Made by a program: the position numbers and the translations under genes
The notes under the pieces: generated by a model
Databases searched by the model: none
Told to the model about the DNA's origin: nothing
Seen by the model: only the letters and a program-made list of their open reading frames with translations
Shown: positions 2,346-61,090 of the stretch, piece by piece
Numbering within the stretch: position 1 is the stretch's first letter
Layout of the letters: every line of letters begins with the position of its first letter
DNA from: Ginglymostoma cirratum
Lineage: Eukaryota
DNA: 64,000 nucleotides
Direction: 5' to 3'
Assembly (NCBI GenBank): GCA_024137785.1
Contig: JAHRHZ010000267.1
Coordinates: forward strand, 14,335,454 to 14,399,453

Positions 2346-2940
2346 ATAACCAGAACTAACCTTCATGCCCTCTTTTTGCTCGGTCTCAAAGGTCTCCATA
2401 GCAGTCAAGTATCACAATCTATGGCCTTCACTTTCCATAGGCAATAGTCAATGTGGCACAGAAAGATGGACTTTTTCTGGGTGTCGTTGAAATGTTTGCT
2501 TTGTACCCTCCCATTCTATTTACCAGGGAGCAGATCTCCATACATTTCAGTCTTGAGCTGGTCACTGTCATTCACCCAGGAAACATGCTATACCAGTGTA
2601 ATTGCTTTTGTGGGAGGATGGTCTCAATCCTGCTGATGTTGGCTGTTTCCAGGAGTTTGACACTTGTGATGTGGTCCTGCCAGCTAATCTTGTAGATGCA
2701 GTGGAGGAAATACTCTAAAGGAAATCCATGTCAGTGGTTTCTGGACTCATAATTTGGTGCCATCCAAAAGGGGAATGAGGAATGCAACTTTGTATGGTTT
2801 TGGTGCTTGGTCTGTATTACGAGGGTCTACTTGTGCTACACTCATTTTAGAGCTAGGCCAAATGCAATATTTACTTTTGAAAACCAATTGTCTACTTTCC
2901 TCTCTATAGTGGCATCAAAATCAGTGACATTCCCCAAATA

Positions 2941-3471
2941 ACAAGCATGGGGCTGGATGAACACAGCAGGTCAAGCAGCATCATNNNNNNNNNNNNNNNN
3001 NNNNNNNNNNNNNNNNNNNNNNNNNNNNNNNNNNNNNNNNNNNNNNNNNNNNNNNNNNNNNNNNNNNNNNNNNNNNNNNNNNNNNNNNNNNNNNNNNNNN
3101 NNNNNNNNNNNNNNNNNNNNNNNNNNNNNNNNNNNNNNNNNNNNNNNNNNNNNNNNNNNNNNNNNNNNNNNNNNNNNNNNNNNNNNNNNNNNNNNNNNNN
3201 NNNNNNNNNNNNNNNNNNNNNNNNNNNNNNNNNNNNNNNNNNNNNNNNNNNNNNNNNNNNNNNNNNNNNNNNNNNNNNNNNNNNNNNNNNNNNNNNNNNN
3301 NNNNNNNNNNNNNNNNNNNNNNNNNNNNNNNNNNNNNNNNNNNNNNNNNNNNNNNNNNNNNNNNNNNNNNNNNNNNNNNNNNNNATGATGCTGCTTGACC
3401 TGCTGTGTTCATCCAGCCCCATGCTTGTTATCTCGGATTCTCCAGCATCTGCAGTACCTTTTATCTCTGAT
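2941..3471 (+). mobile_element. Young Penelope-like element with inverted-repeat arms, centre hidden by a 400-N gap
   Basis: The left arm 2938-2984 is the perfect reverse complement of the start of the right arm (3385 onward). A direct repeat ACATTCCCCAAATA at 2927-2940 and 3472-3485 is the TSD. Arms are nearly identical to those at 59811-60430. Confidence 0.85.
2985..3384. other. Assembly gap (400 N)
   Basis: Run of exactly 400 N. Confidence 0.99.
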
Positions 3472-3600
3472 ACATTCCCCAAATAGGTAACTTGCTTGGC
3501 AGAATTCAGCTCAGATCTTTTAATGTCCATGGTTGGTGGTTTATATTTGTCTTGGTGTTCAGGCTGATGCTGGAGCTCAATTTTCTCTGATTTTTTCTTC

Positions 3601-13879: not shown

Positions 13880-15098
13880 GGTTAGCAAGGTTGGATCATA
13901 AGGAATAGAGGGAGAAGTATCCATTTGGATACAGGACTGGCTCAAAGGTAGGAGACATAGGGTGGTGATGGAGGGTTACTTTTCAGCCTGGAGGCCTGTG
14001 ACCAGCAGTGTGTCACAAGGATCGGTGGTGGGTCCACTGATTTTTGTCATTTATATAAATGAATTGGATGTGAACATAGGAGGTATGGTTAGTAAGTTTG
14101 CAGGTGACACCAAAATTGGTGGTGTAGTGGACAGTGAAGAAGGTTAATGCAGAGTACAATGGGATCTTAATCAGATGAGCCAATGGGCCGAGGGGTGACA
14201 GATGGAGTTTAATTTAGATAAATGTGGGGCACTGCATTTTGGAAAGGCATATCAGGGCAGGACTTTTACATTTAATGGTGAGGTCTCAGGGAGGTTCCTT
14301 GAAAGCAGAGTCCCAGATAGATAGGAAAGTGAAGAAGGCATTTGGTGTGCTTGCCTTTACTGGTCAGCGCGTTCAGTATAGGAGTTGGGAGGTCATGTTG
14401 CACTGTACATTGGTTGGGCTGCTATTGGAATACTCCATGCAGTTCTGGTCTCCCTGTTATAGGAAAGACGTTGTGAAACTTGAAAGGGTTCAGAAAATAT
14501 TTACAAGGATGTTGCCAATGTTAGAGGGTTTGAGCTATATGGAGAGGCTGAATAGACTGGGGTTATTTTCCCTGGAGCATCTGAGGCTGAGGGGCAACCT
14601 TATAGAGGTTTATAAAATCATGAGGGGAATGGATAGGGTAAGTAGACAAGGTTTTTTTTCCCAGGGTGTGGGAGTCCAAAACTAGAGGGCGTAGGTTTAA
14701 GGCGAGAGGGGAAAGATTTAAAAGGGACCTAAGGGATAACATTTTCATGCAGAGGATGGTGCATGTATGGAATGAGCTGTCACAGGAAGTGGTAGAGGCA
14801 GGTACAATTGCAACATTTAAAAGGCATCTGGATGGGTATTTTTTTTCTGAAGAATGGTCCTGACCCGAAATGTCAGCTTTCCTGCTCCTCTTATGCTGCC
14901 TGGCCTGCAGTGTTCCTCCAGCTCCACATTCTGACTCCAGCATCGACAGTTCTTACTATGTCTGGATGGATTTATGAATAGTTTAGGGGGACGCAAAATG
15001 CTGGCAAATAAGATTAGATTTATTTCGGATATGTAGTTAACATGGATGAGTTGGACTGAAGCATCTGTTTCCGTGTTGTATATCTCTATGACTCTATG
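13880..15098 (+). mobile_element. CR1 LINE, 5'-truncated ORF2 RT and 3' UTR, carrying a Penelope-type insertion
   Basis: SSVSQGSVVGPLIFVIYINELD...SKFAGDTKIGG; LEYSMQFWSPCYRKDVVKLERVQKIFTRMLP; terminal (CTCTATGA)-type repeats. Confidence 0.95.
14840..14960 (+). mobile_element. Short Penelope-type element with a hammerhead at its 5' end
   Basis: CTGAAGA-A-TGGTC-CT-GACCC-GAAA-TGTC at 14847-14874. TSD TCTGGATGGGTAT (14827-14839) / TCTGGATGGATTT (14961-14973) inside the CR1. Confidence 0.85.
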
Positions 15099-17465: not shown

Positions 17466-17612
17466 AATCATTAATCATTTTCTGAAGAAGGGTCTCGACC
17501 CGAAACGTCAGCTTTCCTGCTTCTCTGATGCTGCTTGGCCTGCTGTGTTCATCCAGCTCTACACCTTGTTGTCTCAGATTCTCCAGCATCTGCAGTTCCT
17601 ACAATCTCTGTA
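17466..17612 (+). mobile_element. Short Penelope-type element with an intact hammerhead core
   Basis: Perfect 13-bp TSD ACTAATTGATGCT (17453-17465, 17613-17625). Body homologous to 3385-3470 and 60336-60430. Confidence 0.9.
17478..17512 (+). ncRNA. Minimal type I hammerhead ribozyme (Penelope-associated)
   Basis: CUGAAGA (17482-88), extra A, stem II GGGUC/GACCC, GAAA, palindromic ACGU in place of stem III, GUC cleavage triplet (17507-09). Activity not shown. Confidence 0.75.
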
Positions 17613-36900: not shown

Positions 36901-37403
36901 ACTGGAAATAACAATGTACTTTTAATTGCCATTTCACATCTTCTTCATCCTCAACTAAAGCTGCACATACCTACTTCAAGCACCTCTTTCTGACTTCATT
37001 GCATCACCTGTCTTCAAGTCAACTTCTGTCTTTCTCCATTCAAGAATTGCCAGCAACCAACCACAGGTGTAGGAACTTGAGATTTGAAGAGGAAAAGGAG
37101 CGATTATGATGGAGTATTCTCTCCGGATCTCGCAGTTGCCATACAGCACAAACATGTTCTCCTCACTCAGGATGACCAGGATTCATGCTCCTATTCCAGT
37201 TTCTCCAACAGTGCACTTGATGCTCCATGTCAGCCAGCTGAGCCTGATGTCAACCAATGGTGAAATGATGAAGCCAAGTCTGGGTTTTCTAGGCTGAGAG
37301 CTGCTTACCGTTGTTTACTGCAGTCCCCCTCATTGAAAGTCAATGGCTTCCAACCATCCGTGCTGCAGCATGGGTGCCTAGTTAGAATTTGGATGTCATA
37401 TTT

Positions 37404-37948
37404 ATAGAGTCAAACAGCACAGAAACAGACCCTTCAGTCAAACTCATCCATGCAACCAAGTTTCCCAAACTAAACTATTCCCATTTGCCTACGTTTAGCC
37501 CATATCCCTCTAAACCTTACCTATACATGTCTATGTCCAAATGTCTTTTAAATGTTGTAACTGTATCTGCATCTATTACTTGCTCCGGCAGTTCATTCTA
37601 CATAGAAATCACCCTCTGTATAAAAACATTGCCCATCAAGTTGCCTTTAAATCTTGCTTCTCTCACCTGAAAATTACCCGTTGTTGTTTTGAACTCCCCC
37701 ACCCTAGGGAAAAGGCCTTTGCTATTCATCTTATCGATGTCCCTCATGGTTTTATAAGCCTCTATAAGGTCACCCCTCATCTACCTTTCCTCCAGTGAAA
37801 AAGGTCGCAGCCTATCCAGCCTCAGTGTATAACTCCAATCTTCCAGTCCCAGTCACATCCTTAGAAATCTCTTCTGCTCCCTCTCCAGTTTAATAATATC
37901 CTTCCTTTAACAGGGCAACCAGAACTGTACGCAATATTCCAGAAGTGG
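37404..37948 (-). mobile_element. CR1 LINE 3' fragment
   Basis: MRGDLIEAYKTMRDIDKMNSKGLFPRVGEFKT; highly similar to 45370-45915. Confidence 0.92.
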
Positions 37949-38535
37949 AAATGGTGGCTTTTGTTTTAGCAATGCAGCCAGCGAGATGCCATAATGGTAT
38001 ATAACACAGAAATGGTAAGGTGTTGTTTTGTTCTTGCAGGAAAATTAATTACTTTAATTGGTGCTGCAATTGGCTGAGCTGATCACATACAGCTCGGCTT
38101 GAAAGCTGAAGTATTAGTTTCCTCCTTCTTTCCGCCTCTTCAGCTGCCCAGGGTATTCCTTTTGACAAGAGCTGTGCTCTCATAATGGCAGCGCCACCAT
38201 ACAACTCCGTATAGGCATAACCAATTTTAAATCGTGGATGAACCATCAAATACAGCTACAATGTCATTAAGAGCCAGCAGAAAATGATCAACATTTAAGC
38301 TGAAAGTAGTGCGGTGTGTAGTGGGTGGTGAGGAGTGAGTCATGTGTGGTCAAAATGCTCTGGGGAAACATGTTCCACTCTGCAAGATTGAGAAAGCATG
38401 TTGGCTGGAGCATTGAGGTCAAGAATGGTTTTAATGAAATTAATGTTATCTTTTGTTACAAACCAATTAAAGACCTTTAACATTTGAAAAGAAGCCCAAT
38501 TACGTTGTTTTAACCACTACAATTATACCACAAGA

Positions 38536-45069: not shown

Positions 45070-45918
45070 CACTTGGGTCAATAGTCTGAGGAATGGCAGA
45101 TGGAGTTTAATTTGGGTAAATGTAAGGTGTTGCTTTTTGGTAAAACAAACAAAAGCAGGACTTATACAATTAATGGTAGGGCCCTGGGTAGTGTTGTAAA
45201 ACTGAGGGGCCTAGAGGTTCAAGTACATAATTCTTTGAAATTTGCATTGCAGGTAGGTAGGGTGGTTAAGAAGGCATTTAGCACACTTGTCTTCATTGAT
45301 CAGATCTTTGAGTATATGAGTTGGGATGTAATGTTGAGGTTGTGCAGGACGTTAGTGAGGCCTTTTCTGGAGTACTGTATGCAGTTCTGGTTGCTATGTT
45401 ACAGAAAGGATATTATTAAGTTGGAGAGGGTTCAGAAAAGATTTACCAGCATCTTGCCAGGAATGGAGGGTTTGACTTATGAAAATAAGCTGGATAGGCT
45501 GGGACTTTTTTCACTGGAGTTTAGGAGGTCGCGAGGTGACCTTATAGTGTTTTATAAAATCATGAGGGACATAGATAAGGTGAATAGTAAAGGTCTTTTC
45601 GCTAATGTGGAGGAGTTCAAAACTAGATGGCATATTTTTAAGGTAAGAAGAGAAAGATTTAGAAAGAAGACTAGGGGTAATTTTTTCACATAGAGAGTGG
45701 TTCGTGTGAGAAATGAACTGCCAGAGAAAGTGGTGGATGCAGCAAGAGTTACAACATTTAAAAGACATTTGGATAAGTTCATGAATAGGAAAGGTTTGGA
45801 GGGATATGGGCAACCGGAGGCAGGTGGGACTAGTTTAGTTTGAGAACATGGTCAGCATGGACTAGTTGGACCTAAAGGTCTGTTTCCACAATATATGACT
45901 TGATGACTCTATGGCTCT
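45070..45918 (+). mobile_element. CR1 LINE, 5'-truncated ORF2 C-terminus and 3' UTR
   Basis: 197-aa ORF 45100-45693: MEFNLGKCKVL...LVRPFLEYCMQFW...RGDLIVFYKIM; terminal TGACTCTATG repeats. Confidence 0.95.
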
Positions 45919-57499: not shown

Positions 57500-57945
57500 A
57501 CACAGAATCTTTGAATCTCTACAGTGTGGAAAGGAGCCATTCAGCCCATTGAGTCCAATCAGCCCATCGAGTCTGCACCAACACTCCCAACAGCACCCCA
57601 CCCAGAACAAAAACAGAAGTAGCTGGAAAAGCTCAGCAGACCTGGCAGTGTCTGTGAAGGAAAAATAAGAGTTAACATTTCAGGTCCAGTGACCCTTCCT
57701 CAGAACCTCTGTTCACAAATGCTGCCAGACCTGTTGAGCTTTTCCAGTTTTTCTGCTTTTGTTCCTGATTTACAGCATCCCTAGTTCTTTTGGATATTAT
57801 TTAGCACCCTACCCAGACCCAACCTGCTACGCTATCCCTGTAACTCCGTATTTAGCATGGTTAATCCACCTAGCCTGCACATCCCTGGATACTATGGACA
57901 ATTTAGCATGGCCAATCCACCTAACCTGCACATCTTAGACACTCT
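57500..57945 (-). mobile_element. HE1-type V-SINE 3' part, interrupted by a Penelope-type element
   Basis: Matches 32605-32810 on both sides of 57607-57802. Confidence 0.85.
57607..57802. mobile_element. Fully assembled inverted-repeat Penelope-type element (second subfamily) with a minus-strand hammerhead
   Basis: Arms 57607-57652 and ~57712-57765 are imperfect reverse complements. Minus 57706-57671 reads GUU-CUGAGGA-A-GGGUC-ACUG-GACCU-GAAA-UG-UU-AAC. TSD AGCACCC(C/T)ACCCAGA at 57592-57606 and 57803-57817. Confidence 0.85.
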
Positions 57946-59070: not shown

Positions 59071-59916
59071 TTGAAGCACAGCTCCAGGCTGACTGTGCTT
59101 GTCCAGATGCACAACAAGCTTTTTAAAGGTGACCCTGGCATCAAGGATGCCAGTCAATTCCAGGATTTTTGATAAGTGGCATGTTGTTCAGGAAACATTG
59201 CTTGGCAGGATGGGAGTAGAATTGGACAAAAGAGACACCAGGGTGCAGGGTAATTATTTGATAATGCAGCATTGATAAAGACAAGATGGGAAAAGCCTCT
59301 CAGCCTTGTGGCAAAATATCCTCCAAAAACCTTGACACAACTCAAATGTAGCCAAAAACAAAGATTTGGCCAGTTATATTTAAACTTTTCATTTATTCTT
59401 TCCACCTTTGTTTTCGCTAACTGTAACTGTTTTGACATTGAATTCACTTACTCTAATTTCCAATTACTTCTCAATTCTTGCTGTTAAATTTGCAATCTTC
59501 TGATCTAATTGTTAAAGACATACACATGAAACAGGCCAGTTCACTCACATGATCATCTAAGTGCCTGCTTTCCCTTCGCTGTGAGGTTATCAATTCACAA
59601 TGACCTCACAGAAAAAAATTATGGAGTCTAATTGTTTACAATCAATTATGAAGCTTAATTCATGGCAGGTGTTGTTCAATTGCATGTCTTAGTAAGTGAC
59701 AGCTCATTGTCTTCGGTCCTCACTACAAACTGAATTCCCAATCCTGCCAATTGCCTGACCTGGCCAATGTCTGAGACTGAACCAGACTGTTAACTGCGGT
59801 TAAAATTGTATCAGAGATAAAAGGTACTGCAGATGCTGGAGAATCTGAGATAACAAGCATGGGGCTGGATGAACACAGCAGGTCAAGCAGCATCATAGGA
59901 GCAGGAAAACTCAACG

Positions 59917-60316
59917 NNNNNNNNNNNNNNNNNNNNNNNNNNNNNNNNNNNNNNNNNNNNNNNNNNNNNNNNNNNNNNNNNNNNNNNNNNNNNNNNNNNN
60001 NNNNNNNNNNNNNNNNNNNNNNNNNNNNNNNNNNNNNNNNNNNNNNNNNNNNNNNNNNNNNNNNNNNNNNNNNNNNNNNNNNNNNNNNNNNNNNNNNNNN
60101 NNNNNNNNNNNNNNNNNNNNNNNNNNNNNNNNNNNNNNNNNNNNNNNNNNNNNNNNNNNNNNNNNNNNNNNNNNNNNNNNNNNNNNNNNNNNNNNNNNNN
60201 NNNNNNNNNNNNNNNNNNNNNNNNNNNNNNNNNNNNNNNNNNNNNNNNNNNNNNNNNNNNNNNNNNNNNNNNNNNNNNNNNNNNNNNNNNNNNNNNNNNN
60301 NNNNNNNNNNNNNNNN
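59917..60316. other. Assembly gap (400 N)
   Basis: Run of exactly 400 N. Confidence 0.99.
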
Positions 60317-60332
60317 CTCTTCCCCTCCCCCC

Positions 60333-60366
60333 TTTCTGATGAAGGGTTTAGGCCCGAAACGTTGAG
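60333..60366 (+). ncRNA. Minimal type I hammerhead ribozyme (Penelope-associated)
   Basis: CUGAUGA (60336-42), A, stem II GGGU/GCCC with a UUAG loop, GAAA (60356-59), self-complementary AACGUU (60358-63), GUU triplet, short stem I UUU/GAG. Confidence 0.75.
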
Positions 60367-60429
60367 TTTTCCTGCTCCTATGATGCTGCTTGACCTGCTG
60401 TGTTCATCCAGCCCCATGCTTGTTATCTC

Positions 60430-61090
60430 TGTTGACTGTGGTGTCTATTTGATTCTAAACTGCCATTGTCCTCCCCAACTTCAAGACAGTAAACATCCAC
60501 TTCTGTAAAAGTGCCTATTTCAGCCCATCTGATGCTGAAATTCTCTTTCCTGGTTTTGCTGTCTCTAAACTCGACTGCGTTAATTATTTTCTGACTAGCA
60601 TCGCACATTCCACCTTACAAAACTTCAGTTCATCATTCTGCTACCTGTATTCTAGTCCCTGTTCCCCAGCACCCTTGTATGCTCTGACATACATTATTGC
60701 TTGGTCCAGCATCATTTCAATTTTAAAATGATTATTCTTATGCTCAAGTTGTGTCCTGGCCTAACCTTTCCATATCTCTGTTATCTCTGTCAGCCCAATA
60801 TCTGAGATCCCTAACTCTTGCAATTTTGGGTCTAGAATATCCCTGATTGTTACTGTCCCTTTGGGTATGACAATGCCTTCAACTATTTAAACCTTAATTT
60901 TTGAAATTCTCTCCCCATATCATTCACGTGCTCTCTTTGCCCTTTTAAGGTGTTCTTTAAAATCAATGCCTTTGGCCGAACTTTTGGTAATTTGTCCCAA
61001 AATCTCTTTGCATGATATATTGTCAAATCTTGTTTGATCATGCTCCTTTGAAATGCTTTTGTTAAACATGCTATATTGTTGCCTGGCAAC
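60430..61090 (+). mobile_element. L2 LINE 3' fragment
   Basis: DAEILFPGFAVSKLDCVNYFLTSIAHSTLQNF (SRLDYCN motif), then an L2-like 3' UTR ending ...GCTATATTGTTG. Confidence 0.7.

Follow-up and report, generated by a model that had tools for sequence, protein, structure and literature searches.

The question raised by this locus is what kind of object lies across a gap in an assembly when both of its edges carry the same sequence in mirror orientation, one of them with a hammerhead ribozyme motif. The stretch of DNA analysed, hereafter the window, comprises 64,000 nt of Ginglymostoma cirratum (assembly GCA_024137785.1, contig JAHRHZ010000267.1, positions 14,335,454-14,399,453, forward strand) and contains two runs of 400 N, gap 1 and gap 2 (Table 1). 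An earlier model-made reading of the letters alone (the sequence-only reading) had placed both gaps within a young palindromic element in mirror orientation, exposing its ribozyme at gap 2. Our analysis suggests that the gap-2 locus is, very probably, a single insertion, bounded by a 14-bp target-site duplication, in which two 5'-truncated copies of a young, endonuclease-bearing (EN+) Penelope-like retrotransposon (PLE) stand head-to-head, the gap likely resulting from assembly failure at the inverted repeat; that we are dealing with the insertion of a PLE is close to certain. The locus is an ordinary insertion scar of a known arrangement, and the copy that it holds appears to be an inert product.

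Anatomy of the gap-2 locus and its empty counterpart

The arms of gap 2 pair across the gap as had been claimed, with 100% complementarity over 70 nt (59847-59916 and 60360-60429), and the estimate that they are about one base away from the arms of gap 1 holds as well (99% identity over 90 nt, 100% over 47 nt and over 50 nt). It was likewise right that the presence of one element at both gaps exceeds chance: a 46-mer of the arm has at least 46,014 exact matches in the species' own genome, a lower bound because parts of that genome read N, and the reversed control has none. The tail side is mirrored between the two gaps. The gap-2 duplication carries two mismatches, and the gap-2 arms bear two or three private or CpG-type changes. 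Of the proposed mirrored palindromic element, the mirrored arms are thus real and the stand-alone palindromic unit is not, the arms being two 5'-truncated PLE copies. The left arm, ending in CTCAACG, had been thought to stop where the antisense hammerhead would begin; it ends 8 nt inside that ribozyme, because CTCAACG represents, in antisense, the cleavage triplet and the 3' strand of Helix I. Nor does the gap expose the ribozyme in any biological sense, since the arm end is set by the point at which the assembler stopped.

Table 1. Positions of the features at the two gaps of the window.
Feature	Position	Strand	Remarks
Gap-1 insertion	2927-3485	.	second head-to-head insertion, same subfamily, tail on right; 400-N gap 2985-3384
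Gap-1 target-site duplication	2927-2940 and 3472-3485		perfect, 14 bp
Gap-2 target-site duplication, left copy (14 bp)	59787-59800	+	last 3 bases (59798-59800) are microhomology with the element; derived change 59797
Left arm, antisense 3' end of PLE	59798-59916	-	+114 to -4, counted from the hammerhead cut; 3' end outward
One-sided tail extension and first bases that follow the tail in tandem copies	59798-59846	-	missing from right arm; for the tail see PMC8557442
Gap 2, 400-N placeholder	59917-60316	.	likely two 5'-truncated ends and the head-to-head junction; true length not given by N run
Right arm, sense 3' end of PLE, tail-less	60317-60429	+	-47 to +65 relative to cleavage site; 3' end outward
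Minimal type-I hammerhead motif	60332-60367	+	descriptor match at 60330; motif features as in PMC4209133
Hammerhead details	core 60336-60342, extra A 60343, Helix II 60344-60355, GAAA 60356-60359	+	predicted cut after 60363
Gap-2 target-site duplication, right copy (14 bp)	60429-60442	+	one derived change, 60434

A search of sequencing runs with words from the flanks returned runs of a relative (~3% diverged), to which all runs found belong, the largest share of flank words in any listed run being 0.21; no RNA run was among those listed, which says nothing about expression. In each of three runs, one contig joins the left flank (to 59796) to the right flank (from 60444) with six letters between them and the element absent; the flanks of window and relative differ at 54 of about 1,615 bases. 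In a further run (X11), part of the flank is covered and the site is not bridged. The insertion therefore occurred after that split, or was never fixed in the relative. Within the duplication, the relative agrees with the left copy at position 6 and with the right copy at position 11, and each copy therefore has one derived transition. A haplotype switch across the gap, which the sequence-only reading had invoked for the two mismatches, was thus rejected: it removes neither change, and two derived changes on different copies require two mutations after insertion in any case. The probability of two or more changes in 28 bp is 0.03-0.05 at about 1-1.3% divergence, and the two mismatches are a mild outlier without an explanation. 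Templating of the left mismatch by the element was also rejected, since C and not G stands at that position in all of the 100 tandem copies listed. Read on the strand that is sense for the element in the adjoining arm, both derived changes are A>G; these are two events, and the agreement may be chance. That identical arms should stand beside a mismatched duplication is less odd than had been supposed, identical arms being found in 14 of 18 gap pairs vs 3 of 22 resolved pairs. Arms are nearly identical across gaps in general (differing at 6 of 1613 sites, as compared with 49 of 1950 in resolved pairs), and the identity of the gap-2 arms therefore says little about the age of the copy.

Several points weigh against the reading of the locus as one duplication-bounded insertion: (i) the middle of the locus is unread, and the junction itself is not visible, (ii) no complete intact ORF is seen, (iii) the pair is among the 22 of 72 candidate pairs that failed the duplication score and were left out of the identity and mismatch tallies, and (iv) a duplication with two mismatches is uncommon (49 of the 50 duplications passing the score are perfect, the score itself favouring perfect ones).

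Identity of the element and its hammerhead motif

The arms are the 3' ends, comprising pseudo-LTR (pLTR) and minimal hammerhead, of a young Penelope-like retrotransposon. Other copies of the arm continue via a pyrimidine-rich stretch into coding sequence leading to a GIY-YIG domain (E 1.9e-05), and one natural family copy outside the gap-2 locus holds a stop-free stretch of 781 aa with Pfam domains RVT_1 and GIY-YIG as well as, by inspection, the CX2-5CxxC linker motif (as CNRRKCYTC) and CCHH-type residues. A CX2-5CxxC motif in the RT-EN linker is known from the Neptune and Nematis clades (PMC8557442) and would assign the family to the Neptune/Nematis type, the motif being common to both. At 1,273 junction matches the tail continues into the ORF's start, which is the usual partial tandem (pLTR with hammerhead, tail, ORF start). 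Hence, the family combines the features expected of an EN+ PLE, that is, both domains, the linker motif, this tandem, and an inverted truncated copy with one-sided tail and duplication. The closest named proteins are uncharacterized ones of whale shark, zebra shark and bamboo shark (78-93% identity), an affinity that points to a carpet shark as the likely host. The youth claimed for the family is borne out by the long copies, which are mutually mostly 98-99.8% identical (some 94-97%), and the 150 matches to the GIY-YIG coding stretch that were scored, out of 116,711 candidates, are all 100% identical over 100 aa; 99.8% identity among long copies shows recent, not current, activity.

The hammerhead announced for the right arm is present as a motif. 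It exhibits CUGANGA, the extra base, a Helix II opening with G-C, GAAA, the palindromic 15.2-16.2 positions and an NUH triplet (here GUU), and a descriptor of such motifs yields 54 matches in 800,876 bases chosen without regard to content vs 0-2 in five mononucleotide shuffles. A rare A>C at 60332, found in 0.6% of arms, shortens Helix I to 3 bp, below the usual 4-5 bp and the 4 bp of a typical copy. No match at the Rfam gathering score was obtained in the whole window, a PDB sequence search gave two weak matches (E about 0.009), and free folding of the region (z -0.47) did not yield the ribozyme fold; the modelled Helix I and II fold (-3.2 kcal/mol), compared with the best fold (-6.3 kcal/mol), suggests that the active fold is not favoured. 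The ribozyme of this copy is degraded, and we infer that the minimal hammerhead is a passenger here, no same-strand partner being seen.

With the minimal type-I hammerheads of metazoan PLEs, for which opposite-strand motif pairs 100-700 bp apart have also been described (PMC4209133), the motif shares the core boxes, the extra base between 9 and 10.1, the G10.1-C11.1 pair, the palindromic 15.2-16.2 positions and a short Helix I. It differs from them, as a predicted motif, in its Helix II of 4 bp, its GUU and its shortened Helix I. A PLE-related type-I hammerhead in a non-coding stretch is also found in non-LTR retrozymes (bioRxiv 10.64898/2026.07.22.740005). As far as the portions of that source used here show, those are head-to-tail tandems with one hammerhead per unit, whereas the arms of the gap-2 locus are head-to-head with duplication and tail; a head-to-tail tandem, the hallmark of a retrozyme, is absent at this locus.

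Other insertions of this kind are present in the window. An older solo arm of the main family (17478-17610; 83% identity to the young copy) starts at the edge of Helix I and has a tail and an apparent 13-bp duplication, and another older arm starting at that edge (14843-14960) lies inside a LINE-like repeat, further copies of which are found at about 37400-37950 and 45070-45910. A second hammerhead-bearing family has an older head-to-head insertion at 57590-57820; its arms occupy 57623-57658 and 57712-57747, its hammerhead motif lies on the minus strand from 57709, and the apparent duplication of 15 bp has one mismatch.

Assembly gaps and head-to-head pairs across the genome

The sequence-only reading had proposed to count the N-gaps that are flanked by the family in inverted orientation. 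Our blind sample comprised 120 stretches of 10 kb chosen without regard to their content, of which 10 adjoin the window; 36 were wholly N and excluded, and the other 84 gave the 800,876 bases mentioned above. N runs touching the edge of a stretch were excluded, and duplicate loci were removed before counting. The family lies within 30 nt of 18 of the 23 internal gaps, with the mirror arrangement at 9 of the 23; for gaps of 400 N, 9 of 10 touch the family and 6 of 10 do so in mirror. The chance that the family lies within 30 nt of a random point is 4.8%, or about 10% when two flanks are allowed, which gives P about 7e-09 for the 9 of 10. The single 400-N gap of the sample that lacks the main family is flanked by the second hammerhead-bearing family.

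The family is, as had been supposed, systematically under-assembled: N adjoins 20 of the 37 arms at >=95% identity vs 4 of 72 old arms, and N within 700 nt is found on the 5' side of 32 of 76 arms vs the 3' side of one. Moreover, 13 of 15 loci with a perfect palindrome centre adjoin N, and some of them repeat the centre on both sides of a 400-N run, so that such gaps contain no missing sequence; many 400-N gaps at these other loci are false placeholders within palindromes. Of the five gaps without the family, two have inverted repeats of other elements on their flanks, and the cause therefore looks like inverted repeats in general. At locus L119 (4213-9212), a 5000-N gap lies between the halves of a long perfect inverted repeat formed by another element, one of LINE-like type; other retroelements, too, leave inverted pairs that break assembly. 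The gap test confirms an expectation already published, namely assembly trouble at inverted copies.

Among head-to-head pairs drawn from several queries, and hence not a random sample, 52 have a perfect duplication of >=11 bp (12-18 bp, mode 14; 24 pairs gap-free and 28 gapped), and all 52 have exactly one tailed arm. In the first 100 46-mer matches listed, the pairs within 2.5 kb are head-to-head in 11 cases and tail-to-tail in none. In 76 unbiased arms, the 3' ends fall into two clusters (near +59 to +70 and +90 to +116), and a hammerhead is present on both arms in 2 of 9 resolved pairs of the unbiased sample. The length of the arms and their junctions differ between loci, and the arms grade into the RT-EN coding region.

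In the gap-free pairs, the two arms are discordant at common non-CpG variants in 1.1 per 1000 sites vs 4.6 when shuffled, which is below all 1000 shuffles, and 4 of the 24 pairs disagree at such a subfamily variant, at one site each; the overall difference between arms is not lower (16.6 vs 19.2 per 1000 shuffled). Such concordance is compatible with a single source element for most pairs; it does not separate two-ended priming from snap-back, the copying of a cDNA onto itself. Four single duplication-bounded insertions (L008 786-1603, L169, L258 and L123) have arms that differ at subfamily-diagnostic sites, and it is possible that two different templates were used there.

Integration of the element and its alternatives

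Arm identity, orientation, the one-sided tail, the duplication, the empty site and the gap enrichment are observed, as are false gaps at other loci. Beyond these, a course of integration may be proposed. The protein of the element would make a staggered cut about 14-16 bp wide, and reverse transcription would be primed from both 3' ends, one at each of two internal start sites bounding the tail. The template would be uncleaved RNA, as may be deduced from the Poseidon element of Anolis carolinensis (PAc), for which both strands have been reported to be cut and extended and two RT start sites to bound the tail (PMC11167929). The two cDNAs would stop early and then, as we infer here, be joined 5' to 5', often via short palindromic homology. 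We consider the two-ended priming step fairly probable, and note against it that the mechanism stems from in vitro work on a lizard element of another clade.

The second arm might instead arise by snap-back, that is, by self-priming of one cDNA or from an antisense template, without use of both cut ends. Self-priming from such palindromes has been proposed (PMC3846280), a perfect centre at the Helix I edge occurs in 198 places and a short-loop centre has 443 matches, and the sharing of subfamily variants between arms beyond shuffled pairs would suit self-copying as well, which tells against our main reading. Yet in 52 of 52 pairs each of the two predicted RT start zones receives one of the outer ends, 4 of the 24 resolved pairs are discordant at a subfamily variant, and in many pairs the arms are very unequal or the centre contains foreign DNA, so that we regard snap-back as rather unlikely. 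Those recurrent centres, each with a hammerhead motif and found in hundreds of places, could also be ascribed to a palindromic, non-coding ribozyme element propagating itself as one unit in the manner of a retrozyme or MITE. This is largely refuted and very improbable: arm lengths and junctions are locus-specific, the arms merge into the RT-EN coding region, the exact-centre counts of 198 and 443 are small when compared with 46,014 arms, and tandem arrays of identical monomers are absent at the loci examined.

An assembler that walks one high-copy repeat edge both ways could mimic the mirror arrangement as well. The scarcity of arm differences across gaps relative to resolved pairs would agree with such an artefact, as would the gap-1 arms, which on both sides terminate at one and the same base of the element, and the loci that repeat the centre on both flanks. 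However, the same arrangement with perfect duplications is found in 24 pairs without a gap, the gap-2 duplication has the length usual for the family, and it is exactly these flanks that are joined in the relative; an artefact may affect arm identity and gap size, not the arrangement, and there is very little chance that it accounts for the latter. It appears similarly improbable, if by a hair less so, that the locus serves, along the lines of the sequence-only reading, as a host hairpin RNA (a siRNA or ADAR substrate) or an active ribozyme. The 70 complementary bases would indeed pair if transcribed across, the catalytic core is intact in the right arm, and small RNAs from Penelope copies are known in a rotifer (PMC3846280). 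Against this stand the empty site in a close relative and the GUU triplet, 3-bp Helix I and unfavourable predicted fold; pairing with the left arm would, moreover, mask the cleavage site, and minimal hammerheads are described as not cleaving as monomers (PMC4209133). Insertion of two truncated PLE copies, probably with priming from both cut ends, hence remains the reading that we prefer.

The 5' ends of the arms bear on this reading. In an unbiased pattern sample of 60 ungapped arms, with positions counted from the hammerhead cut site, 15 ends lie at -29 to -34, 12 at -21 to -24 and 2 near the cut. Genome-wide, extension of the pattern from -31 to -37 keeps 34,573 of 62,515 matches (55%), so that about 45% stop there, whereas extension from -37 to -43 keeps 34,589 of 37,784 (92%), with 8% lost over those six bases; the pile-up counts include gap edges. 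This stop coincides with the 5' edge of Helix I and falls on the A of CCATTTC (-32). The initiator consensus is YYANWYY, and CCATTTC fits it. It is thus tempting to speculate, tentatively and at somewhat less than even confidence, that the pile-up marks the start of the element RNA at an initiator-like sequence, with ~40% of arms being run-off cDNAs that are tail-primed just downstream of the RNA 5' end. The second pile-up (-21 to -24) consists in part of short-loop palindrome centres.

Other origins of the pile-up fared less well. A spliced upstream exon at -32 was rejected, the sequences upstream of the junctions being mutually unrelated, and AT-rich microhomology as the sole cause is not favoured, since a longer AT-rich stretch at about -52 to -62 holds one of the 23 surviving ungapped ends (at -51). 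An apparent excess of 5' ends at the hammerhead cut (6 of 30 DNA-query loci vs the 2 of 60 unbiased arms) was rejected as query selection. The layout differs from that in Drosophila virilis, where the RNA start precedes a 75-bp intron by 46 bp (PMC2377424), the intron itself ending at Helix I (PMC4209133). In the main-text portions of the PLE literature covered here, we did not meet the pile-up at the Helix I edge or the gap count; we make no claim of absence beyond these.

Comparison with known PLEs places these findings in context. An inverted truncated copy, a one-sided tail and assembly trouble have been described for PLEs (PMC8557442, Fig. 2), as have inverted pLTRs, junction palindromes, an initiator-like motif in the pLTR, small RNAs and failed assembly (PMC3846280). 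The shark insertions resemble the units of C-terminal EN+ PLEs (PMC8557442; Pen2a_Av, PMC3846280) in 5' truncation, head-to-head inverted copy, target duplication, a tail of 30-40 bp at one end, junction palindromes and trouble in short-read assembly. In contrast to them, the shark family exhibits a far higher copy number (the 46,014 exact 46-mers), duplications of 12-18 bp rather than the 8-10 bp described in a rotifer, and a strong accumulation of 5' ends at the edge of Helix I. Features shared with PAc (PMC11167929) are a hammerhead where pLTR and ORF meet and two zones of 3' ends that bound the tail, and the lack of a 5'-end pile-up at the cleavage site in the shark arms is consistent with an uncleaved RNA template as in PAc. 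Poseidon differs in having no Cys linker, and activity on two strands has been demonstrated for PAc, whereas for the shark element it is deduced.

Since most of the sampled gaps are due to one young Penelope-like family, and many runs of 400 N are false, repeat content, the size of gaps and the number of copies are biased in this assembly. For the biology of PLEs, one tail per pair, a fixed 5' stop and no stop at the ribozyme cut constitute testable limits on an integration process that is called still undefined in the literature portions considered here. If the pile-up indeed marks the RNA start, it would, together with the one-tail rule, make this genome a record of tens of thousands of footprints of two-ended priming, with two fixed start sites and uncleaved RNA. 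Many assembly gaps would then conceal such products of the priming step, the unsettled part of the Penelope cycle.
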